This document shows, piece after piece, positions 21,605 to 41,793 of a stretch of DNA of 42,900 bases. The translations under genes were made by a program, and so were the position numbers. Position 1 is the stretch's first letter. Each line of letters starts with the position of its first letter. Below the pieces are notes generated by a model. That model did no database searches, was not told the DNA's origin, and was given only the letters and a program-made list of their open reading frames with translations. This DNA is from an uncultured Planctomycetia bacterium. Its GTDB lineage: Bacteria; Omnitrophota; Gorgyraeia; Duberdicusellales; 4484-171. The stretch covers positions 1 through 42,900 of the forward strand of contig CAYXBX010000001.1 in assembly GCA_964463445.1 (NCBI GenBank), read 5' to 3'.

Positions 21605-22870
21605 ATGGGAAAAACTATAATTGAAAAGATTCTTTCTTTTCGCTCCCAAAGGTCTCTTTATGCCGACGACGTTGGTATCTGTAAAGTTGATTTTTGTTTT
21701 TCTCAAGATGGTACAACCTCTTTAGTTCTGGATGCTTTAGGTAAATTCAGTAAAAAGCCTTCTATTTCCTGTTCCTACGCTATGTTTATTGACCACAGTT
21801 CCCCTTCGCCTAATATTGGTGTATCTAAAGTTCATAGCAGGATGAGAAAGTTTTCTCATTATGCACGTAATCTTCTTTATGATGTTGGCTGCGGTATATC
21901 TCATCAGTTGGTTATCGAAGAAGGTTTTGCTTATCCGGGGAGGTTGATTTTAGGGGCGGATTCCCACACTTCAACAGCAGGAGCATTAGGTTGCGCAGCT
22001 TTTGGGGTAGGCTCAACGGATTTAGCAGTTACCTTAATCACAGGAAAGAACTGGTTTAAGGTGCCTCAGACTTATAAGATAATTCTTAAAGGAAAAATTC
22101 CTTTTGGAGTGTATAGCAAGGATATTATTCTTTATCTGATACATAAATTTACTGCTAATGGCGCTACCTACAAGGCAGTTGAGTTTGAGGGGGAAGTTGT
22201 TGATAATTTAAGTTTGGATGCCAGGTTTACAATTACTAATATGACTATAGAGTTTGGGGCAAAATGCGGCATTATAGCACCGGATAAAAAGACGCTCAAT
22301 TTTCTCAAGAGAATAGGGGTTAAAAGGATTAAGCCGGTTCATCCTGATAAAAATGCTAAATATCAGCATGTTTATGAATTTGATGTGTCTAAAATTTCTC
22401 CCTATATAGCGAAGCCACACACTGTGGATAATGGTGCTGCTATAGAGGAGATAGAAGGAATAAGAATTGACCAGGCTTATTTAGGTACCTGTACTAATGG
22501 GCGTCTTGAGGATTTAGAGATTGCCGCCAGTATAGTTAAAGGGAAGAAAGTAAACAAAGATGTGCGTTTTATTGTGGCGCCTGCTTCAAAGAAGACATAC
22601 GCTGCTGCCTTAAGGAAGGGAGTGCTTAGAGTTTTTATGGAGGCAGGAGCTATTATTCTTCCTCCTGGGTGTGGTCCTTGTGTGGGAACTCATCAAGGTG
22701 TTCCTGCGGATAAAGAGGTGGTGATTTCTACAGCCAATAGGAATTTTAAAGGTAGAATGGGAAATCCCAATGCTTTTATTTATCTGGCTTCTCCTGCTAC
22801 CGTAGCAGCTTCTGCCTTAAAGGGTGTTATAACTGACCCTAGGAGATATATTAAAAGGAGCAAGGTATAA
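21605..22870 (+). CDS. Aconitase-superfamily dehydratase, large subunit (archaeal-type LeuC/HacA-like, about 420 aa)
   Basis: 421 aa with GADSHTSTAGALG, and Fe-S ligand contexts GTCTNGR and PGCGPCVG. NRNFKGRMG motif. Confidence 0.9.
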   Translation: MGKTIIEKILSFRSQRSLYADDVGICKVDFCFSQDGTTSLVLDALGKFSKKPSISCSYAMFIDHSSPSPNIGVSKVHSRMRKFSHYARNLLYDVGCGISHQLVIEEGFAYPGRLILGADSHTSTAGALGCAAFGVGSTDLAVTLITGKNWFKVPQTYKIILKGKIPFGVYSKDIILYLIHKFTANGATYKAVEFEGEVVDNLSLDARFTITNMTIEFGAKCGIIAPDKKTLNFLKRIGVKRIKPVHPDKNAKYQHVYEFDVSKISPYIAKPHTVDNGAAIEEIEGIRIDQAYLGTCTNGRLEDLEIAASIVKGKKVNKDVRFIVAPASKKTYAAALRKGVLRVFMEAGAIILPPGCGPCVGTHQGVPADKEVVISTANRNFKGRMGNPNAFIYLASPATVAASALKGVITDPRRYIKRSKV

Positions 22871-22892
22871 TAAATAAGAAAGAGGAGGATAA

Positions 22893-23942
22893 ATGATTGA
22901 TATTAATTCTCTTTTTAAGATGACAATGGATGAAGATGCCAGTGATTTGCATATAACAGTAAATAGTCCTCCCATATTAAGAATTGATGGTAAGCTTCAT
23001 TTTACAGATTTGGAGGTTCTTTCTCCCGATGATACCAAATTTATGATTTATAGTATACTTAACGATGAGCAAAAGGCAAGTTTAGAGCGTGATAAAGAAT
23101 TGGATTTTTCCTTTTCTGCGCCGGGTCTGGATAGGTTCAGAATAAACGTGCATTACCAGAAGGGAAATTTAGAGGCAGCCTTCAGGCGTATTCCTTACAA
23201 GATTCCCACAATCGAAGAATTAGGTGTTCCTTTGGTCGCTTATGATTTAATAAGAAAACCCAATGGTTTAGTCTTGGTTACAGGCCCTACTGGTATGGGT
23301 AAGAGTACTACCTTAGCGGCGATGATTGATGTTATCAACGGAGAAAGAGAAGAGATTATTATATGTATAGAGGACCCTATTGAGTATGTTCATACCAACA
23401 AGAAGAGTGTTGTAAAGCAAAGAGAAGTTTATGCTGATACCCATTCTTTCCCTGAGGCATTAAAAAGGGCTTTGCGTCAGGATCCCGATGTTATTGTTGT
23501 TGGCGAGATGCGTGACTTAGAAACGATTGGTACTACTCTTACTGCTGCTGAGACTGGGCATTTGGTTCTTGCGACTTTGCACACACCCGATGCTCCTCAG
23601 ACCGTTCAACGAATCATTGATGTATTTCCTCCTCATCAACAAAAGCAGGTAAGAGTTCAGCTTGCTGACTGTATTCAGGGGGTAATTTCTCAGTTACTTC
23701 TTCCGCGTGCTACAGGCAAGGGGAGAGTTTTAGCTACAGAAATTATGATTGCAACTCCTGGTATCCGTAATCTGATAAGAGAAGGAGAAATAGCTCAGAT
23801 TCCTTCTTTGATACAGATGGGAGCACAATATGGTATGCATACTATGGATAAATGTTTGAAAGAGCTTTACCGTCAAGGCATAATTACCCGGGAGGTAGCG
23901 GTAAGCAAGGTTAAAAATATTGTTGAGTTTGACAATCTCTGA
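22893..23942 (+). CDS. pilT: Type IV pilus retraction ATPase PilT
   Basis: 349 aa with Walker A GPTGMGKST, Asp box, and PilT signature GIRNLIREGE. GAGGAGG SD. Confidence 0.92.
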   Translation: MIDINSLFKMTMDEDASDLHITVNSPPILRIDGKLHFTDLEVLSPDDTKFMIYSILNDEQKASLERDKELDFSFSAPGLDRFRINVHYQKGNLEAAFRRIPYKIPTIEELGVPLVAYDLIRKPNGLVLVTGPTGMGKSTTLAAMIDVINGEREEIIICIEDPIEYVHTNKKSVVKQREVYADTHSFPEALKRALRQDPDVIVVGEMRDLETIGTTLTAAETGHLVLATLHTPDAPQTVQRIIDVFPPHQQKQVRVQLADCIQGVISQLLLPRATGKGRVLATEIMIATPGIRNLIREGEIAQIPSLIQMGAQYGMHTMDKCLKELYRQGIITREVAVSKVKNIVEFDNL

Positions 23943-23946
23943 GTTT

Positions 23947-24450
23947 ATGAAATTTAAAGGCAGAGTATTTAAATTCGGTGATAATATCAACACAGACTGG
24001 ATAATTTCTGGGCGGTATAAATTTGCCATTACTGACATGAGGAAGCTTTCTCGCTATCTTTTTGAAGATATCAGGCCTGATTTTTATAAAGAGATAATTC
24101 CTCACAAATCTATAATAGTGGCAGGAGAAAATTTTGGCATGGGTTCTTCAAGAGAACAGGCTCCCTGGGTCATAAAGGAAGCAGGCATTCTGTGTGTTAT
24201 TGCGAAAAACTTTGCCCGCATATTCTATCGTAATGCTTTTAATATCGGTTTAGCTCTCATTGAAGCAGATACAACTCACTTTAGAGAGAAAGATGACTTA
24301 ATTGTTGATGTGGATAAAGGAGTTATTAAGAGAATGAGAGATAATTTCATAGTGGAGTTTCCTCCTTTTGATAATTTTCGCAAAGAGTTGATAAAAGTTG
24401 GCGGAATTATAGAGTATTTAAGGAAACACCGTAATTTTAAGGTGAAATAA
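23947..24450 (+). CDS. Aconitase-superfamily dehydratase, small subunit (LeuD/HacB-like)
   Basis: [20 protein letters not shown] start and [13 protein letters not shown] motif. The start is taken at ATG 23947, because the ORF-track start 23920 overlaps pilT. Confidence 0.9.
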
Positions 24451-33770: not shown

Positions 33771-35075
33771 ATGAGAAGAGTAAGCGCAAGTTTAGCTATT
33801 TTGCTTCTACTGCCTTTGGGGGTATTTGCTGCAGTAAACAGTGTAAAAGTAAGCGGAGACATTACCTCAACTGCAGTTGCCCGTGATTTCTCTTTGGGTG
33901 CAGGCGGTAACGATGACGCAAGCGATTTTATTGCTACTCAGGTGCGTTTAAGAGTGGACGCTGCTTTAACCGAAGGGGTTAATGCGGTTATACGCTTTAT
34001 CAACGAAAGGCTATGGGGAGAAGAAACCACTGATACAGACATTGACCTTGATTTAGCTTATCTTGAGATGAAAGAGTTTTTCTCGCCGGTTGCTACATTG
34101 ATTGTTGGCCGTCAGAACCTTCATTACGGAAGCGGATTGATTGTCGGCGACCCTGATACTAACCGGATTGCTTCTAGTGAGGTTCCTACGATAATGAGTG
34201 ATCTTTCCTTAAGAAAATCCTTTGATGCTGCGCGTTTAATTTTAGACTACTCTCCTTATATGCTTGATTTAATTTATGCAAAAGTTTCTGAAGGAGATAC
34301 CAATGTTAACGACGATGTAACCCTTTTTGGTGCTAATTTAAGCTATGCCTGGAACTCTTACAATGGTTTAACCAATGTTTACTTTTTTGGTTCTGATAAT
34401 GCCAGAGGCGTTAATGTTCAGGATGAGAAATCAAAAACTTATGTAGTGGGCGCAAGCACTCAGCTTTCTCCCAATGACCACCTGGTTCTTTCAGGAGAAG
34501 CTGCCTATCAGTTCGGCGATTACGCAGGTGCCACAAGCCATGCTCATTTAAGTGCCTGGGCGCTTGAATTAAGCGCAACTTATCGTTTCTTAAATGAGAA
34601 AAACGGGCAAATCGGGTTTTTCTATGCTTATCTTAGCGGCGATGATACTTCCAGCAAAAGTTACAATGGCTGGGACCCAATGTTTGAAGACCAGGTGCCC
34701 GCAGAAATAATAAACATTCTTTTTGCTCATTCCAACTGCCAGCTTTTCAGTATAAACGGCTCTTTTATGCCTCGTGAGGATTTAACCGTAGGTGCCCTTT
34801 ATGCTAAAGCCTTTTTAGCAGAGAAGTTAAGCGCAGGTACTTATATAATTACCACAGGTCCTGCTGTTGGTGGTGAAAGTAGTACAGCTACTTACACGGT
34901 AAAGTCTGGCAAGAAAGAATTAGGCGATGAGCTTGATGTTTTTGCTACTTATGATTACACTGAAGATGTTCAGTTTAAACTAACTGGCGCCTGGTTTGAG
35001 CCGGGAAGCTGGTTTGCTTCTTCTAATGACGAAAGTGCTTATTCTTTAAAGGGAAGCGTAAAAGTTGCTTTCTAA
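33771..35075 (+). CDS. Outer-membrane beta-barrel protein, porin-like (possibly alginate-export-like family)
   Basis: Signal peptide MRRVSASLAILLLLPLGVFA/AV, alternating beta-strand pattern, a GRQNLHYGSGLIVG motif, and C-terminal ...VKVAF (terminal Phe). GGAGG SD. Confidence 0.75.
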   Translation: MRRVSASLAILLLLPLGVFAAVNSVKVSGDITSTAVARDFSLGAGGNDDASDFIATQVRLRVDAALTEGVNAVIRFINERLWGEETTDTDIDLDLAYLEMKEFFSPVATLIVGRQNLHYGSGLIVGDPDTNRIASSEVPTIMSDLSLRKSFDAARLILDYSPYMLDLIYAKVSEGDTNVNDDVTLFGANLSYAWNSYNGLTNVYFFGSDNARGVNVQDEKSKTYVVGASTQLSPNDHLVLSGEAAYQFGDYAGATSHAHLSAWALELSATYRFLNEKNGQIGFFYAYLSGDDTSSKSYNGWDPMFEDQVPAEIINILFAHSNCQLFSINGSFMPREDLTVGALYAKAFLAEKLSAGTYIITTGPAVGGESSTATYTVKSGKKELGDELDVFATYDYTEDVQFKLTGAWFEPGSWFASSNDESAYSLKGSVKVAF

Positions 35076-35177: not shown

Positions 35178-35510
35178 ATGGGTGATGAGTTAAAGTTGCC
35201 TGATGAAGAAATAAGAGAAGGAGCAGCATTTGCGGCTCTATCTTATGTATTTTTTCTGTGGATTTTAGCTTTTATCTTTAAGAAAGATAATCGCTTTGCT
35301 CATTTTCATGCCCGTCAGGGGTTGGTTATTTTTGTCTTAGAGATTATATGTTTTTTTATGCCTTTTATACCTATTCTGGGAGGTTTGCTGTACGTTTGGG
35401 GATGGATTCTTCTTGTTGTTGCCTCTTTATACGGGGTTTATTCTTCTTTAACAGGAAAACTATGCCATATGCCTTTTATTACCCGTATTGCCTCTAAAAT
35501 GGTGATTTAA
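35178..35510 (+). CDS. Small membrane protein, DUF4870-like
   Basis: 110 aa with 3 predicted TM helices. The motif NRFAHFHARQGL after the first TM is typical of that family as I recall it. Confidence 0.7.
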   Translation: MGDELKLPDEEIREGAAFAALSYVFFLWILAFIFKKDNRFAHFHARQGLVIFVLEIICFFMPFIPILGGLLYVWGWILLVVASLYGVYSSLTGKLCHMPFITRIASKMVI

Positions 35511-35511
35511 T

Positions 35512-36210
35512 ATGAAAAGAAACAAAAGCAAATTTATATCCTTAGAAAAGAACAAACATATATTTGGCAATGACTTTATAAGAGGAGACACCTGGCGGGT
35601 TTTCCGTATTATGAGTGAGTTTGTAGAAGGCTTTGAGGGGCTTTCTGATATAAAAAAAGGCGTTGTATTTTTTGGTTCAAAAAGATCCCCTTCTACCAGT
35701 TCCTTTTACAAATTAGCCCGTAAAACCGCATATATTCTTACTAAGAAAGGGTATACTGTAATGACAGGTGCAGGCCCGGGCATAATGGAAGCTGCTAACC
35801 GAGGGGCAAAGGAGGCAGGTGGGACTTCTGTAGGGTTAAATATTCTTGTTCCTGAGCAGCAGGTTCCTAATAAGTTTGTTAATTACCTTTTGGAGTTCAG
35901 ATATTTCTTTGTGAGAAAAGTTATGTTTGTCAAATATTCCTGTGCCTTTGTGGTTTTTCCCGGAGGCTATGGCACTCTTGATGAGCTTTTTGAGGGGTTG
36001 GCCTTGGTTCAGACAGAAAGAATTCCTTCCTTTCCTATTATTCTTGTGGGTAAAAGTTTCTGGCGAGGTCTTTTAAGCTGGCTTAAGGAGACTTTGATAA
36101 AAGAAGGCACAATTGTTTCCTCTGATTTGTATTTATTTAAGGTTGTGGATACACCCGCTGAGGTTATAAACTCTATAAGTAGCTTTTACAGAAAGAAAAA
36201 GAAGCAGTGA
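35512..36210 (+). CDS. LOG-family protein (TIGR00730-type Rossmann fold; nucleotide 5'-monophosphate nucleosidase-like)
   Basis: 232 aa with TGAGPGIMEAANRGA and the LOG signature PGGYGTLDE. It starts 1 nt after the upstream stop. Confidence 0.85.
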   Translation: MKRNKSKFISLEKNKHIFGNDFIRGDTWRVFRIMSEFVEGFEGLSDIKKGVVFFGSKRSPSTSSFYKLARKTAYILTKKGYTVMTGAGPGIMEAANRGAKEAGGTSVGLNILVPEQQVPNKFVNYLLEFRYFFVRKVMFVKYSCAFVVFPGGYGTLDELFEGLALVQTERIPSFPIILVGKSFWRGLLSWLKETLIKEGTIVSSDLYLFKVVDTPAEVINSISSFYRKKKKQ

Positions 36211-36506
36211 AGGCTTTTTTAAGAGCGTGGTACAAATTTGATGTTGATGATATAAGGAATTCTCTTTTTGTAATAGGAGAACTAAGCGGAGAGTGTTTCT
36301 CCTGCCATAAAGTAGGTATAAGTATTGGAGAGAAAACCTGCCCTCAATGCAAAAAAGAGTTTAAGTTCATAGCTTTCAGAAGAAGAGCGGATTCTTCTGT
36401 GATAGAGCGTTTTCGCAAGAGGTATCCTAAAGAGGTGTTTGTTGACTTTGACGATTTTAAAAAAGCAGTAGGTAGAAGCTCTGCCCGCAAACTGCTTGAT
36501 ATTTAG
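36207..36506 (+). CDS. Hypothetical protein with CxxH...CxxC zinc-ribbon-like motif
   Basis: 99 aa. The GTG start overlaps the LOG stop (GTGA). CFSCHK...CPQCKK. I recognise no family. Confidence 0.55.
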   Translation: MKAFLRAWYKFDVDDIRNSLFVIGELSGECFSCHKVGISIGEKTCPQCKKEFKFIAFRRRADSSVIERFRKRYPKEVFVDFDDFKKAVGRSSARKLLDI

Positions 36507-36943: not shown

Positions 36944-38164
36944 ATGAGGTTATACTTTCCTCATAATTTCTTATGGGGTTCGAGTATCTCTAGTTATCAA
37001 ACCGAAGGTGGAAATATCTACAGTGACTGGTTTCTGTGGGAGAAAGAGCAAGGATTAGAACACGCAGGAGCTTCAGCCAATCATTATAAGTTTTTTAAGG
37101 AAGATATAGAGATTGCCTCTTCTTTATCTCATAATGCCTTTCGTTTTTCTCTGGAGTGGTCAAGAATTTACCCCCATAAAGACAGATTTAACGAAGTCGG
37201 CTTTAAGCATTATGAAGATGTCATAAGTACGCTTAAAAAGTACAATATAACGCCCGTTGTTACTTTACATCATTTTACCAATCCTATATGGTATACTAAA
37301 GAGGGCGGGTGGCTAAATCATAAACTTATAGATTATTTTTTGTGTTATGTAAGAAAAGCAGTCTCTCTATTAAAGGATAATGTAAAGTACTGGATAATTT
37401 TTAATGAGCCTGTGGTGTATGTTTATAATGGCTTCTTAGAAGGCATATGGCCTCCAGGGTTAAAATCCACGAAGGAAGCTTTGCGTGCCTTAAGGAATAT
37501 CTTAAGAGCCTACATTTTATCTTATCAAGAGATAAAGAGGATATACGCAGATAAAAAATCTTTTCTCTCCATAGCAAAGAATATGAGAGTGTTTATTCCC
37601 TGTTTTTATTTAAACTTTGGGCAGAACAATCTTTTTTCTTTTATAAGAAGCCGTTTCTTCAACTTCTATGTGCTGGATTATTTATACAAGAATAGATGCC
37701 TTGATTTTATTGGTTTAAATTACTATTGCGGGGAATTTACAAAAGCTAATTTTTCCCTCTGGGGCAGAGAATGCACAGACGCTCATCACAAACTTAAGAG
37801 GAATGATTTGGGATGGCTTGTTTTTCCTTCTGGCCTGTATAATTTGCTTGTTAGGCTAAGAAATTATAATCTGCCTATAGTTATAACTGAAAACGGAACA
37901 GTCACCCCCCTCGATGAAGAGTACGCCTCGTTTATGATTTCTCACATAGAGAGCGTAGCGAAAGCCATTAATGATGGAGTGGACGTTAGGGGGTATTTCT
38001 GGTGGTCTCTCCTTGACAATTTTGAGTGGGATAAAGGTTACAGCTGTAGATTTGGGTTAGTAGACGTTGATTTTAACAATTTTTCAAGGAAAATAAAGCC
38101 TTTTGCCTTAAAGTACAGAGATATATGCAGGAATAATTTTATAGACATAGAGAATGTTGACTGA
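36944..38164 (+). CDS. Glycoside hydrolase family 1 beta-glucosidase, cytoplasmic
   Basis: 406 aa with FPHNFLWGSSISSYQTEGG, acid/base NEP (IFNEPVVY) and nucleophile ITENG. No signal peptide. Confidence 0.88.
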   Translation: MRLYFPHNFLWGSSISSYQTEGGNIYSDWFLWEKEQGLEHAGASANHYKFFKEDIEIASSLSHNAFRFSLEWSRIYPHKDRFNEVGFKHYEDVISTLKKYNITPVVTLHHFTNPIWYTKEGGWLNHKLIDYFLCYVRKAVSLLKDNVKYWIIFNEPVVYVYNGFLEGIWPPGLKSTKEALRALRNILRAYILSYQEIKRIYADKKSFLSIAKNMRVFIPCFYLNFGQNNLFSFIRSRFFNFYVLDYLYKNRCLDFIGLNYYCGEFTKANFSLWGRECTDAHHKLKRNDLGWLVFPSGLYNLLVRLRNYNLPIVITENGTVTPLDEEYASFMISHIESVAKAINDGVDVRGYFWWSLLDNFEWDKGYSCRFGLVDVDFNNFSRKIKPFALKYRDICRNNFIDIENVD

Positions 38165-39998
38165 AGAGATAATATCTGCCTTTTCTCCCTTTAACCGTCT
38201 TAAAAAGAGCCAGGTTAAAGAGCTTCTTAATATCTCTTCTCTTAGAGAATACAAGAAGGGAGAAATAATCTATCGTGAGGGAGAAAACCCCGGATATTTC
38301 TATTTTCTTGTTAAAGGAAGAGTTGTTGCTATTTCGTCCATTGAAGGAAGAGAACGTGAGATAGAGCTTATAAAGAAGGGGACTCCTTTTGGCATCATCT
38401 CTCTTTTTACTAAAGATCCCCACTCTGTTACGACTAAGGCCATTGAGAATTGCCTTATTGTTGTTATAAGAGAGGATAAGTTTAGGAATTTTGTAGAGAA
38501 AAGTCCGTTTCTTGCCTTCTATTTTTCTCAGGTTCTTTCCAGGAGAGTAAAGAAACGAGCAGACAGGCCGAAGAGAATATTTAAATCCACCGGTATTGTT
38601 TCCATCTTGGACGGCGATTATATGCAGTTGTTCTCTGTGGTAATTGAGCTGGCAGGCCTTCTTAGTCTGCACAATAAAAAGGAAGTTATTGTTGTAGAGG
38701 CGTCATCTTCTGGAAGTTTTGTACTTCCTGGGGTAGTGGGTGAGAATGTAGATACTTTTAATCTTGATGGGGAATTTAGAGAAGACTTATCAGTAAGAAA
38801 GATAAAAGGAGTAAATTTCTTGTGTCTAAAGATGGATACAACTTTTAAAGATGAGTTGTTTTCCTTTGGCAACTTTCTGTTAGAGAACTACCATTTTATT
38901 TTCTATATTATCCGCAAGGAAGATATCGATTACTGGCTTACCGTTTTTAATGTTGTTAATCACATTTATATTTTGTGTAACCGGCTGGATAAAGATGTTT
39001 TTCTTTCTAAAAAGATTAAGAGCATAACAGATAAATTTAAGTACATAGAAAAGACAGTAAGAGTGATTTTGACGGATAGAGATGGCTATCCAGAGGTTGG
39101 CCAGGCTCGTAAACATAGAGACGAAGAGATTGTTATTTTAGGCAAAAGAGGGCACAAAGATTACAAAAAGAGATTGGGGCATCTGGAAAGAGTTTTAGCA
39201 GAAAAGACCTTAGGATTAGCTTTGGGCAGCGGGGGAGCATATGGTCTTGCTCATATAGGAGTTCTTAAGGCTATTGCTGAAAGCAATGTGCCTTTGGATA
39301 TGGTATGCGGTTCAAGTATTGGTTCGGTTATTGCAGCGATGTGGGCATTAGGTTTTTCTTTTAAAGATATGGGCACGGCAGTTGATTTACTCAGCAGGAG
39401 AATAAAATTGTTTTCTTTCACATCTTTTACCTTCCCCTTTAGAGGCATAGTAAAAGCGAGGCGGCTGGAAGGTGTATTTAAAGAAATATTTGGCAGACGT
39501 TCATTTAAAGACGTAGTCTGTCCTTTGGCGGTGGTTGCTTTTAATTTTAAGAAACGTCAGATAGTTGCCATAGATGAGGGGCTAATTTATAAGGCTGTAA
39601 GCGCAAGCTGTGCTATGCCGGGGATATTTGAGCCTGTTGTCTTTAATAATGAGATGTTTCTTGACGGAGGAGTGTTAAGCCCTCTTCCTACAAAGATACT
39701 TCTTCAGTTTGATATAAAGAAGATAGTGGCTGCAAACGTTACTCCTCGCCGCGAAGAAATCCGCAATGTTTATCGTAAAAAGAGTATTTTTAATGTGTTT
39801 GATTTCATCTTTGGCAGCATAGAAACTATGCAGCAGGAATTTATAAGAGGGTCTTTGGATATTTCCGATGTAGTTATACATCCTGATTTAGGAGATTTGA
39901 GCTGGACTGATTTTAGCGCTAAAGACGAATTTATAAAGAGAGGATACGAAGCTACTTTAAGAGTTCTTCCTCAGATTAAAGAACTTCTTTCTGGTTGA
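38154..39998 (+). CDS. cNMP-binding-like domain / central P-loop-less ParA-like region / patatin-like phospholipase
   Basis: 614 aa. The N-terminal CAP/CNB-type beta-roll (GEIIYREGENPGYFYFLVKGRV) has a degenerate phosphate-binding cassette. The patatin domain has oxyanion GSGGAYG, GxSxG as GSSIG (Ser388) and DGG (Asp504). It overlaps the GH1 gene by 11 nt. Confidence 0.85.
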   Translation: MLTEEIISAFSPFNRLKKSQVKELLNISSLREYKKGEIIYREGENPGYFYFLVKGRVVAISSIEGREREIELIKKGTPFGIISLFTKDPHSVTTKAIENCLIVVIREDKFRNFVEKSPFLAFYFSQVLSRRVKKRADRPKRIFKSTGIVSILDGDYMQLFSVVIELAGLLSLHNKKEVIVVEASSSGSFVLPGVVGENVDTFNLDGEFREDLSVRKIKGVNFLCLKMDTTFKDELFSFGNFLLENYHFIFYIIRKEDIDYWLTVFNVVNHIYILCNRLDKDVFLSKKIKSITDKFKYIEKTVRVILTDRDGYPEVGQARKHRDEEIVILGKRGHKDYKKRLGHLERVLAEKTLGLALGSGGAYGLAHIGVLKAIAESNVPLDMVCGSSIGSVIAAMWALGFSFKDMGTAVDLLSRRIKLFSFTSFTFPFRGIVKARRLEGVFKEIFGRRSFKDVVCPLAVVAFNFKKRQIVAIDEGLIYKAVSASCAMPGIFEPVVFNNEMFLDGGVLSPLPTKILLQFDIKKIVAANVTPRREEIRNVYRKKSIFNVFDFIFGSIETMQQEFIRGSLDISDVVIHPDLGDLSWTDFSAKDEFIKRGYEATLRVLPQIKELLSG

Positions 39999-40001
39999 TG
40001 T

Positions 40002-41024
40002 TTAGTTAATCATCACTACAGAATTCTTCCCGCCGAAAGCATCGTCTTCCTGGAGATTATTCGAGGGGTCATTTATCCATCTTCCATCCGCTATAAACTT
40101 ATAGCTGTATTTTCCTTTCTTAAGTGGCAAATCGATAGCCCAGGTATCGTTGTCTACTTTCTTAAGCTTGTAATTATCACAAGGAGCCCAGTCATTAAAT
40201 TCTCCTACCAGATAGACTTCTTTAAAATCTTTTCCTTTTAAGACGAACTTTACAAGACGTGGAGGGTGTGATATTTTTTCTATTTCCTGCGCAAGCTGGC
40301 GGTAATCTTGACTTCCACGTGAATCCTTTTTATACTCAAAGATACTTAAGCCGCTGGCAGCAGCCTCTCTAAGGTGAATATTGGTCCTGATTACGGTAGA
40401 TAAGAGAGCATTGCCAAAATATTCCTGGATTTTCTTATAGAATGATTGGGAGAATTTAAAACGTCTATCTAACTGAGTGAGGAGGTAGTGTATTTGAGGA
40501 GCTACTTTCTTATGTTCGTACAGTATTTTTATAATATTGTTTAAGTTCTCTACGCCTTTGAGAGAGAGCTCACATACCCCAATAGGGACAATAATATAAC
40601 TGCTTGATACTAAAGCACTTAGGGTAAGAACTCCCAGATTAGGGGGGCAATCTATAATGCAATATTCAAATGCTGCTTCGTATTTGTTTAGTGCGTTTGA
40701 AAGCACATCCAACTTATTCTTGTGTTCTATTAGTGATTGTTCGACGGCGCTTAAGCCAATACTGGAGGGTAACACATAGAGATTGTTGGCACGGTTTGTA
40801 AGATAACTGTTATAATCAAAAGGACGGTTGTTTATAATATTATCAAAAAAGTCAGAGGAAGTGTATTTGGGTTTTATTCCTAAAGAGAATGTAGCGTGTG
40901 CCTGGGGATCTAAATCTGCCATAAGAACGCGTCTACCCCTATTGGCTAAGGCGTAGGCTAAATTTACTGCTGTAGTTGTCTTACCGCAGCCTCCTTTCTG
41001 GTTAATCAGAGATATTATAATCAT
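40002..41024 (-). CDS. ParA/MinD-family ATPase fused to a C-terminal AMPK-beta/CBM48-type glycan-binding domain
   Basis: 340 aa with deviant Walker A and signature Lys (NQKGGCGKTT). The C-terminal 85 aa are VKFVLKGKDFKEVYLVGEFNDW...YSYKFIADGRWINDP...GGKNSVVMI. The GGAGG SD overlaps the upstream gene's last sense codons, directly abutting its TAA stop. Confidence 0.85.
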   Translation of the reverse strand: MIIISLINQKGGCGKTTTAVNLAYALANRGRRVLMADLDPQAHATFSLGIKPKYTSSDFFDNIINNRPFDYNSYLTNRANNLYVLPSSIGLSAVEQSLIEHKNKLDVLSNALNKYEAAFEYCIIDCPPNLGVLTLSALVSSSYIIVPIGVCELSLKGVENLNNIIKILYEHKKVAPQIHYLLTQLDRRFKFSQSFYKKIQEYFGNALLSTVIRTNIHLREAAASGLSIFEYKKDSRGSQDYRQLAQEIEKISHPPRLVKFVLKGKDFKEVYLVGEFNDWAPCDNYKLKKVDNDTWAIDLPLKKGKYSYKFIADGRWINDPSNNLQEDDAFGGKNSVVMIN

Positions 41025-41026
41025 CC

Positions 41027-41689
41027 TTACCTCCTTTTTCTCAATATTATCTCTTTTATTAGCACAGGCAATGAATTGATTTCATCCTGATAGAATATAA
41101 ATCTTAACTGAGTTATCCGTTTAGTATTAAGGGTGCCATCTACAATATTTTTTATTGTTATAGGTATTTCTATATAAGCAGAATCTTCTTCGGGGCTAGT
41201 TACTACTTTTTCTAAAGGACTCTTCGCGTTAGAGAAAAAATTATTATCTCTTAAGATAAGACGGATGTTGAATTTTTTTCTTACATTCTTAACTACAAGG
41301 GTTATTGTAGAGTTGGAGATGTCAATTTTATCCTTTAGATTAATAGCAAAGCCACTGTCGGCGTTAAACGGCACGTCAATCAAAATGGTGTTTTTTGTTA
41401 TTTTAGAACCTAACTGGGGGTTGATTAGAGTAATAGATGATACTAACTCATTTTTTAGTAAGCTAATCTCACTGTCTTTAAGAGGGTTTTTGTATTGAGG
41501 CAGGATTAATACATTAAAATTTAATACGAAGAAAGTTGTAAGTACAGCTATACATAGAAAAACAATTCCACCTATAACAATAATTTTTTTCTTTCTTTTT
41601 GGCTTTTTTTCTCTGGGGGAAAAGAAGGTTTTCTCTAAACGCCGCGAATCATCTAAGGAGATGGGATTAAGATTAGAGAAATCAATCAT
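41027..41689 (-). CDS. Bitopic membrane protein of unknown family (basic cytoplasmic tail, one TM, beta-rich extracytoplasmic domain)
   Basis: 220 aa. The N-terminal 35 aa end in REKKPKRKKK. The TM helix IIVIGGIVFLCIAVLTTFFVLNF spans about aa 36-58. The C-terminal domain is about 160 aa. First gene of the two-gene minus-strand operon. Confidence 0.65.
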   Translation of the reverse strand: MIDFSNLNPISLDDSRRLEKTFFSPREKKPKRKKKIIVIGGIVFLCIAVLTTFFVLNFNVLILPQYKNPLKDSEISLLKNELVSSITLINPQLGSKITKNTILIDVPFNADSGFAINLKDKIDISNSTITLVVKNVRKKFNIRLILRDNNFFSNAKSPLEKVVTSPEEDSAYIEIPITIKNIVDGTLNTKRITQLRFIFYQDEINSLPVLIKEIILRKRR

Positions 41690-41764: not shown

Positions 41765-41793
41765 AGTATACCATCTAATTGTGCAAAAATCAA
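41765..41793 (-). promoter_or_regulatory. Possible sigma-70 promoter for the minus-strand operon
   Basis: On the minus strand: TTGATT (reverse complement of 41788-41793), 17-nt spacer, TATACT (reverse complement of 41765-41770). Weak match, pattern only. Confidence 0.3.

Follow-up and report, generated by a model that had tools for sequence, protein, structure and literature searches.

A ParA-type ATPase with a fused AMPK-beta-type module and a bitopic membrane partner in Omnitrophota: a candidate organizer of cellular glycogen

ATPases of the ParA/MinD class place chromosomes, plasmids, the divisome, flagella, chemoreceptor arrays and carboxysomes, and to our knowledge in every case studied the ATPase itself attaches to DNA or membrane, a separate adaptor linking it to the cargo. 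The stretch of DNA analyzed here (positions 1 to 42,900 of contig CAYXBX010000001.1, from an uncultured Planctomycetia bacterium placed by GTDB in Omnitrophota; its full 42.9 kb is referred to as the window) encodes on its minus strand an ATPase of this class that continues into what the initial annotation, made from the letters alone, took to be a glycan-binding domain, and directly upstream of it a bitopic membrane protein. The question raised by this locus is what a positioning ATPase would do with a carbohydrate-binding module (CBM) of its own and a membrane protein as its constant neighbor. The bearing is on glycogen, whose organization, inheritance and access gating in bacteria are, as far as we know, poorly understood.

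The reading preferred here, at a probability of roughly 0.45, is that the pair consists of an orphan Soj-type ParA with its own alpha-glucan-binding module and a membrane anchor or regulator, which together would act as an ATP-switched, membrane-controlled tether or organizer of glycogen. Fusion and partner may represent an undescribed way to organize or control the glycogen store of the cell. The components belong to known superfamilies; what is new is a phylum-wide, uncharacterized ParA system whose ATPase carries a polysaccharide-binding module and whose membrane partner is of a new class.

The ATPase and its fused module

The two genes and the parts of the fusion protein are as follows.

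40002–41024, minus strand: coding sequence of the ParA–CBM48 fusion, 340 residues, beginning MIIISLINQKGGCGKTT, stop codon at 40002–40004 (open reading frame list)
40269–41024, minus strand: Soj-like ParA ATPase domain, residues 1–252 (phmmer against the PDB, Foldseek, residue conservation)
40974–40997, minus strand: deviant Walker A motif K10-G-G-C-G-K-T-T17, including the signature lysine and Cys13, which is invariant and unusual (sequence; 65 fusion loci)
40008–40259, minus strand: CBM48/AMPK-beta-type beta-sandwich, residues 256–339 (Pfam, PDB alignments, AlphaFold2 strands)
41027–41689, minus strand: coding sequence of the bitopic partner, 220 residues, TAA stop at 41027–41029 (open reading frame list)
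41030–41034, minus strand: GGAGG Shine-Dalgarno sequence of the fusion gene, within the last codons of the partner gene (sequence)

Both open reading frames described in the initial annotation are thus present, and so is the tight coupling claimed for them: the minus strand reads GGAGG-TAA-GG-ATG at the junction (the ParA ATG being 41022–41024), which in the raw sequence leaves 2 nt between the partner's stop and the ParA start and 5 nt between the Shine-Dalgarno sequence and the ATG. To follow the pair into other genomes, a profile of the end of the ParA domain plus the CBM was run against one genome per GTDB species, giving at least 312 confirmed relatives. The best 80 of these loci were inspected and 65 proved to be true fusions; locus counts below rest on these 65, and the wider family of 66 sequences consists of them plus the window's own. 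Because more than 120 full-length homologues carry the Pfam domain PF16561 and synteny of the two genes extends to about 55 of the 65 fusion genomes, the pair is, as judged from these comparisons, not a product of chance.

The N-terminal part of the fusion protein matches Pfam AAA_31 (3e-48) and CbiA (6e-21). The ParA, RepA, BcsQ and MinD models of NCBIfam match below threshold only, so no curated functional family fits, and by these profiles the protein is a member of the ParA/MinD class that stands outside all of them. Among PDB sequences (phmmer) its first 250 residues are nearest to Soj/ParA (8RAY ParA, 7e-40; Soj of Helicobacter, 6IUB, and of Thermus, 1WCV, ~1e-30), with MinD (E 1e-18) and McdA (E 1e-15) more remote. 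The AlphaFold2 model, computed from an alignment of 56 homologues (mean pLDDT 90, pTM 0.75), matches Soj/ParA structures in Foldseek with a TM-score of ~0.9 relative to the target, and in it the last ParA helix (236–252) is followed by a 3-residue linker and a beta-sandwich (256–339). Compared with Soj/ParA of Thermus, Bacillus and Helicobacter (1WCV/2BEK, 6IUB, 8RAY), the protein shares the fold, 30–35% identity, the signature lysine, the Walker A' and B aspartates and the residue equivalent to B. subtilis Soj (BsSoj) R189, but it has no adjacent ParB/parS, carries a C-terminal CBM48 and a Walker A cysteine, is paired with a membrane protein and, in the window's own clade, has an altered P-R-N-x-R DNA-contact motif.

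The deviant Walker A motif noted at the outset (KGGCGKT) is borne out by conservation. Among 56 close homologues (45–74% identity) there is no variation at K10, G11, G12, C13, K15, T16, D37 or D125; K10, K15, Cys13 and the Walker A' and B aspartates D37 and D125 are found in 66/66 members of the wider family, and KGGC(G/A/S)KT is present at all 65 fusion loci. Codon 13 (40986–40988, minus strand) specifies Cys where the aligned solved structures of Soj/ParA and related proteins have Val or Ala, and Cys151 is likewise invariant among the 56 close homologues; at the dimer interface the invariant cysteine could confer sensitivity to redox state or to metals.

Soj's basic patch for DNA binding has been defined experimentally as BsSoj R189/K201/R215/R218, equivalent to TtSoj R182/R194/R208/R211 (PMC6393308), and by alignment these residues map to positions 188, 200, 214 and 217 of the window protein. 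Position 188 is Arg in 56/56 close homologues and in 65/66 of the wider family. A basic residue (K or R) stands at position 200 in 47/56, the window protein having Q there; position 214 is T in 50/56; and at position 217 the window clade has H or some other non-basic residue, against K/R in 45/66 of the wider family. In the window clade P-R-N-x-R is remodelled to R-T-N-I-H, and conserved basic residues lie around the patch (R213 in the window clade, K/R219, K/R232 and R236). Most of the Soj patch appears on this alignment to be kept, and the nucleoid may also take part in the system; non-specific DNA binding by the fusion protein is plausible, not established.

The proposed match of the C-terminal 85 residues to AMPK beta is upheld by the profile search. 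Pfam AMPK1_CBM (PF16561) scores 42.2 bits (E 9.8e-11, cut-off 26.8) over residues 268–338, and the last 88 residues align with the AMPK beta1/beta2 CBM structures at E ~2e-9 (phmmer, PDB sequences) through FNDW/FNNW, YKF/YKF, DGRW/DGQW and FGGKNS/LGTVNN. W279, K309, W316, F330 and N334 sit at the positions of AMPK beta1 W100, K126, W133, L146 and N150, so that the four contacts named in the initial annotation (Trp, Lys, Trp, Asn) are all kept, with F330 at the place of L146 in addition. We take K126, W133, L146 and N150 to be glucan-contact positions from the structure of the beta1 CBM with cyclodextrin. W100 is required for glycogen binding by AMPK, which is abolished by the beta1 W100A substitution (PMC11752127).

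W279, W295, K309, W316 and N334 are invariant among the 56 close homologues, and position 330 is F in 51/56 and Y in 5/56. In the wider family (n=66), where CBM identity to the window ranges from 28 to 62%, both platform tryptophans are retained in 66/66, as are K/R, F/Y and N/D at the other three positions. Judged by this pattern the CBM48 is under strong purifying selection at its glucan-contact positions, and binding of glycogen or a similar alpha-glucan is the predicted function. Compared with the AMPK beta CBM (1Z0M, 4YEF, 4Y0G), to which it is joined by an above-threshold match and by the retained contacts, the module sits on a ParA/MinD-class ATPase rather than on a kinase scaffold, its glucan binding is a prediction, and in most family members the Lys is replaced by Arg and the Asn by Asp. 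The linker between ParA and CBM, 3 residues in the window clade, is about 16–67 residues longer elsewhere, because of which the CBM is, as read from the alignments, a flexibly tethered module in most of the family. Foldseek, run on the full-length fusion model, gave ParA-type matches only and so bears on the ATPase fold. A match to the NCBIfam 'T9SS plug protein' model (30.9 bits against a cut-off of 100, residues 228–314) was dismissed as a sub-threshold beta-sandwich match. Free and ParA-fused modules coexist in the phylum: in an Omnitrophota relative a standalone 92-residue CBM48/AMPK1_CBM protein, 40% identical to the window CBM, is encoded beside a GT5 glycogen-synthase-like gene (L002:176–454, minus strand).

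The full-length homologues (~340 residues, 45–94% identity, all with PF16561) have only the generic names 'AAA family ATPase', 'ParA family protein', 'chromosome partitioning protein' or 'hypothetical protein', and those with a named source come from metagenome-assembled genomes (MAGs) of Candidatus Omnitrophota. Given the profile match, the synteny and these names, none of the conditions that the initial annotation set for its own refutation was borne out. At least 65 species-level genomes carry the fusion; almost all are Omnitrophota, among them the complete genome of Ca. Velamenicoccus archaeovorus LiM, and single cases occur in Latescibacterota, Phycisphaerae, Planctomycetota and one 'delta proteobacterium' MAG. 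A search of the literature found no published ParA/MinD ATPase with a carbohydrate-binding module or with glycogen as cargo, in agreement with the initial annotation, which had known of no such fusion; a preprint on the 'giant genes' of Omnitrophota names glycogen in passing only. Several MAGs labelled 'uncultured Planctomycetia/Planctomycetales' carry an Omnitrophota-type fusion (L009, L014, L018–L020, L028, L031, L045, L046, L048, L065–L067), nearly all of them with the partner too; their taxonomic labels are probably coarse or wrong.

The membrane partner and the gene neighborhood

The partner is divided into four parts, the first three of which span its N-terminal tail and membrane segment.

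41621–41653, minus strand: conserved cytoplasmic N-terminal helix, residues 13–23, DDSRRLEKTFF, a candidate ParA-docking or activating peptide (conservation; AlphaFold2 helix 13–23)
41585–41614, minus strand: basic juxtamembrane run R26-EKKPKRKK-K35 (sequence)
41516–41584, minus strand: single transmembrane helix, residues 36–58 (hydrophobicity scan; long AlphaFold2 helix 34–61)
41039–41470, minus strand: extracytoplasmic beta-jelly-roll, residues 74–217, CBM11/CBM30/CIA30-like at the level of fold (AlphaFold2, Foldseek, profile links)

The protein is bitopic as first described, with one hydrophobic helix and a beta-rich C-terminal part. Its tail before the transmembrane helix is SPREKKPKRKKK, and because a Lys/Arg run precedes that helix the positive-inside rule would place the N-terminus in the cytoplasm. 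The initial annotation had singled out the basic end of this tail; the run REKKPKRKKK is present, but the conserved element is instead the helix that precedes it. In the window protein the conserved stretch is D14-S-R-R17-L18-E-K-T21-F22-F23-S-P, of which D14, R17, F22 and F23 are invariant and L18 nearly so among the partners of the window clade. Generalized as (H/R)-L-(A/E)-x-(I/T/V)-(Y/F)-(L/F), the motif is found in 60/60 partners examined, followed a few residues on by a Lys-rich run in nearly all of them and then by the transmembrane helix. By analogy with the activating peptides of other ParA/MinD systems, this helix may contact ParA and stimulate its ATPase.

A bitopic protein of 186–270 residues is encoded upstream of the fusion in the syntenic loci, in most of them on the same strand with its end -4 to about +40 nt from the ParA start; the loci that lack it are mostly contig ends or non-Omnitrophota genomes. 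Identity to the window's partner is 25–56% inside its own clade and 11–20% outside it, and by this measure the partners are fast-evolving. A word-indexed search with the single sequence gave 6 relatives only. A profile built from 50 locus-derived sequences gave 775 clusters at 90% identity, all named 'hypothetical protein' and without Pfam domains, the source-named ones being from Omnitrophota, and an exhaustive HMMER search for the family gave 754 representatives at 50% identity.

That the outer domain belongs to no recognized family, as stated in the initial annotation, holds for the profile databases (the partner has no match in Pfam or NCBIfam, with 0 Pfam families even at E ≤ 1) but not for its predicted structure. 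In the AlphaFold2 model of the partner (mean pLDDT 81.6; 83–95 over residues 70–220) the ectodomain models as a jelly-roll, for which Foldseek against the PDB returns CBM11 (1V0A, 6R31), NDUFAF1/CIA30 (7ZKQ_A), CBM30, CBM29, CBM15 and CBM6 with E 1e-6 to 1e-4 and identities of 8–16%, a likeness to CBM11/CBM30/CIA30 at the level of fold. Links from major-clade profiles point the same way. Compared with the known members (1V0A, 6R31, 1WZX, 7ZKQ_A), the window's partner lacks a Pfam match and is a small bitopic protein with the module as its ectodomain. Neither partner profile drew a meaningful match from PDB sequences, and Pfam gave sub-threshold CBM_11 matches in only 4/37 partner-family members.

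With a profile headed by the window's partner and consisting mostly of major-clade sequences (A5), the ectodomain part matches Pfam-labelled CBM30/CBM_11/CIA30 regions of large proteins at E 1e-28 to 1e-13. These proteins are 1,300–3,800 residues long and contain 2–7 copies of the ectodomain beside PKD, beta-helix and glucoamylase domains; a relationship to the giant surface proteins described from Omnitrophota is possible. Examples are P0297, P0306, P0317, P0337 and P0347, of which P0297 and P0306, when scanned with Pfam, contain CBM30/CBM_11, PKD and beta-helix/NosD. In two further proteins, P0344 and P0355, a cytoplasmic HD/HD_5 domain with an HD-GYP-like HHERMDGSGY is followed by a transmembrane helix and then by the same ectodomain. 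The order of domains suggests a transmembrane sensor, with the ectodomain as a reusable extracytoplasmic sensor module, and points to a sensor module previously unnoticed in Omnitrophota. P0344 (L086:3297–4721) has AAA_22-type ATPase genes on both flanks, an uninformative context.

Comparison of window-clade and major-clade partners by hhalign gives P = 0.0014 and a probability of 18%, co-linear over 106 ectodomain columns. Sequence homology of the two ectodomains is weakly supported by this and is not claimed as proven; the equivalence of the two partner clades is based mainly on their common N-terminal motif, architecture and synteny.

A link to alpha-glucan comes from the neighboring genes. 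At about 33 of the 65 loci, all in the major clade and including Ca. V. archaeovorus, a gene for a glycoside hydrolase of family GH57 (~510 residues) lies 17–307 nt upstream of the partner on the same strand, giving the array GH57–partner–ParA-CBM. The catalytic domain of the hydrolase begins at residue 5, so the enzyme has no signal peptide. It is a close homologue (E 2.6e-87) of the GH57 amylopullulanase of Aquifex aeolicus, which cuts alpha-1,4 as well as alpha-1,6 bonds (PMC12106739). Two relatives of the window clade (L002/L003) have divergent GH57 and GH77 genes together with the standalone CBM48 protein and the GT5 glycogen-synthase-like gene, and another (L004) has three GH57 genes, with a branching enzyme and an AmyA-type transferase among their products. 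Downstream of the fusion in the Latescibacterota genome (L070), and on its strand, come two GT5/GT4 GlgA/glycogen-synthase-like genes and a GH57+BE_C branching enzyme, a gene context that supports a link to alpha-glucan metabolism across phyla. Taken as genomic context, these arrangements support the glycogen link independently of the CBM. No glycogen genes were seen beside the fusion in the Phycisphaerae genome (L077) or the 'delta proteobacterium' MAG (L056).

Proposed mechanism and competing explanations

The preferred mechanism joins these parts in one cycle. ATP binding would dimerize the ATPase, as in all ParA/MinD proteins, and the dimer would present two C-terminal CBM48 modules, turning weak monovalent glucan binding into avid binding of a glycogen particle; the Soj-like basic face (R188 and its neighbors) may also hold the dimer on the nucleoid. 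The cytoplasmic helix of the partner (R17-L18-x-x-T21-F22-F23) would dock on the dimer, where it would set how fast ATP is hydrolyzed and hence how fast release follows, in the way of the N-terminal peptides of ParB, MinE and McdB. Glycogen particles would thereby be tethered or spaced, reversibly and in an energy-dependent way, with respect to the membrane and perhaps also the nucleoid, a putative role at the level of the granule. The cytoplasmic GH57 amylopullulanase-like enzyme, co-encoded in most Omnitrophota, would act on the same polymer, and the CBM11/30-like outer domain of the partner would serve as an envelope anchor or as an extracytoplasmic glycan input.

Surface-binding ATPases with an activating peptide are familiar from MinD–MinE, McdA–McdB and PpfA–TlpT. 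As in those systems, binding by the C-terminal surface binder would depend on the ATP dimer, and the short N-terminal helix of the partner could act like the MinE contact helix or the ParB and McdB peptides. Unlike MinD, whose membrane-targeting helix is at the same end of the protein, the window fusion carries a CBM48 there; the surface binder is a folded CBM and not an amphipathic helix or DNA-binding patch, and for a partner it has an integral membrane protein that bears an ectodomain. Should the preferred reading be correct, glycogen would join the list of cargos or matrices organized by ParA proteins, with a ParA cycle that is wired differently. In E. coli, by comparison, glycogen appears to segregate passively by phase separation (PMC12706056). 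The family with its ATPase-borne polysaccharide module is kept throughout a phylum and is linked to enzymes of glycogen, and the module is a concrete, cloneable two-protein system.

Several observations weigh against this reading. In the window's own clade, no alpha-glucan enzyme is encoded within the 42.9-kb window; there and in the nearest relatives a convergent gene for a cNMP-binding/patatin protein and genes for a GH1 enzyme and an ACT protein take the adjacent places. Pfam's separate CBM_48 model (isoamylase N-terminal type) scores 16.6 bits, under its cut-off of 22.4, and AMPK-type CBMs also serve as protein–protein interfaces, for example in AMPK itself. In a few non-Omnitrophota genomes (L056, L070, L077) the fusion occurs without this partner. 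Finally, a presumed stimulator fixed in the membrane and a cargo binder on the ATPase do not correspond to the classical ParA ratchet, in which the stimulator is on the cargo, and directed positioning or transport is therefore not automatic.

The alternative that survives best makes the system a signalling switch, with the partner as a transmembrane sensor of glycans: its CBM11/30-like ectodomain would report carbohydrate in the periplasm or outside the cell, its helix would set the pace of the ParA-CBM48 ATPase cycle, and the coat that the ATP dimer forms on glycogen would gate the access of GH57, making ParA a gatekeeper of glycogen mobilization that responds to energy and signal. The use of the same ectodomain in HD-GYP-like proteins raises this reading: the transmembrane helix and ectodomain of P0344 and P0355 are laid out as in a sensor, the ectodomain family overlaps Pfam CBM30/CBM_11 regions, the order GH57–partner–ParA-CBM recurs, an Alginate_exp barrel gene is a conserved neighbor and a cytoplasmic GH1 enzyme is conserved in the window clade. 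Against this, the HD-GYP fusions are two only among the top 150 partner-family representatives, conservation of the ectodomain's aromatic residues does not extend from one partner clade to the other, and we know of no ParA/MinD ATPase that is the output of a transmembrane sensor; the switch is considered unlikely. The fuller claim made from it, that this is a new transmembrane signalling device in which a CBM-like sensor controls, via a short peptide, the ATP cycle of a glycogen-seated ParA, with external carbohydrate and cellular ATP jointly determining if the glycogen store is sequestered or made available to the GH57 debranching amylase encoded alongside, is a shade more doubtful. If it were true, glycogen would be the third 'matrix' of ParA/MinD proteins after DNA and membrane, and the device would be a bacterial functional analogue of the glycogen-sensing module of AMPK.

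Nucleoid hitch-hiking, in which the ATP dimer binds both DNA and glycogen for even inheritance and the membrane partner is a sink or recycling factor, is rather improbable. PhaM and PhaF tether storage granules of PHB/PHA to the nucleoid, and a bifunctional protein could in the same way link a storage polymer particle to DNA, though PhaM and PhaF are unrelated proteins without an ATPase cycle and their polymer is a different one. Among solved structures the ATPase is nearest to the DNA-binding Soj/ParA proteins. The Arg equivalent to BsSoj R189 is kept almost throughout and the residues matching K201 and R218 are basic in most sequences of the respective sets, R213, K/R219, K/R232 and R236 make up a conserved basic face, and in most members the CBM is flexibly tethered by a linker of 20–60 residues. 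On the other side, the window clade has R-T-N-I-H in place of the contact motif, with T and H at the matches to R215 and R218, and hitch-hiking leaves no clear role for a strictly conserved membrane partner.

Less probable again is a reading in which the beta-sandwich serves protein interaction in the manner of an Ig-like domain and the ATPase localizes or assembles an envelope complex around the partner, as BcsQ does for cellulose synthase or TadZ/CpaE for pili. The partner is indeed a membrane protein with an envelope-facing domain, the AMPK CBM forms a protein interface in AMPK, and the window clade has no adjacent alpha-glucan gene. BcsQ–BcsR (6YAY), which organizes cellulose secretion, offers a parallel, as a ParA/MinD ATPase tied to polysaccharide and membrane partners, and BcsQ appears among the secondary matches in Pfam (CBP_BcsQ, 1.5e-12), NCBIfam (TIGR03371, 5.9e-23) and Foldseek, far below the ParA matches; but the score of 81.6 bits falls short of the 157.85-bit cut-off, no bcs genes are nearby, and the polymer implied is a cytoplasmic alpha-glucan. 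The invariant residues of the sandwich are exactly those of the glucan platform, alpha-glucan enzymes recur beside the module in two phyla, and the conserved neighborhood contains no synthase, secretin or pilus genes.

An ordinary chromosome-partition Soj with an accessory domain and with ParB/parS elsewhere in the genome is very improbable, for although sequence and fold are nearest Soj/ParA and most of the basic patch is kept, neither a tblastn match to Spo0J nor a ParB-box motif was found within ~6 kb in 70 loci or in the whole window, the constant neighbor is a membrane protein, NCBIfam ParA_partition scores 108.8 against a cut-off of 180, and the window adjoins a ribosomal-protein/rpoA region with no soj-spo0J-type gene arrangement.

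Three more specific identities were rejected. Canonical ParABS was rejected because the same search of 70 loci and the window gave no ParB, and the module neighborhoods examined contain no min genes; the absence of both parB and min genes had been remarked in the initial annotation. MinD does not fit a protein whose C-terminus is a folded beta-sandwich with no membrane-targeting helix (TIGR01968, 46.7 against 212.9 bits), nor does a BY-kinase of CapA/CapB type (TIGR01007, eps_fam, 32.8 against 108 bits), the CBM C-terminus having no Tyr cluster.

Other features of the window and of related loci

Three further features belong to the surroundings of the gene pair.

41765–41793, minus strand: candidate sigma-70-type promoter of the two-gene unit, TTGATT-17-TATACT with a TG extension (consensus scan; weak evidence)
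33771–35075, plus strand: Alginate_exp-type outer-membrane barrel (Pfam; near the module in 23 loci)
35178–35510, plus strand: membrane protein of ~110 residues with sub-threshold Tic20/DUF4870 matches (near the module in 30 loci)

The promoter is to be read with the outcome of the consensus scan for promoters and terminators as a whole, in which the number of sites did not exceed the shuffled expectation and was at background level. The barrel and the ~110-residue protein recur near the module in both clades, a functional link not being established. The gene for the latter lies directly downstream of ParA-CBM in about 25 loci and 4.5 kb from it in the window, and in the major clade an Alginate_exp barrel is encoded just upstream of the GH57 gene (L022:1368–2810; L027:1773–3146). 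Also in the major clade, a small open reading frame 150–1800 nt downstream of ParA-CBM (L027:6575–6979 and homologues, 39 loci) encodes a protein whose N-terminus is rich in Lys and whose C-terminal part is compact and probably beta-rich.

In the window, the gene for the cNMP-binding and patatin-like phospholipase protein (38154–39998, plus strand) ends 3 nt from the convergent stop of ParA-CBM and overlaps the GH1 gene by 11 nt at its start; the middle ~230 residues of its product have no assignment. Each of the three neighbors (patatin, GH1 and ACT) is met again next to the module in 7–8 loci of the window clade. A 99-residue protein encoded at 36207–36506 (plus strand), with two Cys pairs in a zinc-ribbon-like arrangement (C-x2-C ... 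C-x2-C) and no Pfam match, is kept near the module in 8 loci, and the start of its gene overlaps the end of a LOG/SLOG-family gene. Farther away, at 21605–24450 (plus strand), a PilT/T2SSE-type ATPase gene (22893–23942) lies between the genes for the large (21605–22870) and small (23920–24450) subunits of an aconitase-family dehydratase and overlaps the start of the small-subunit gene.

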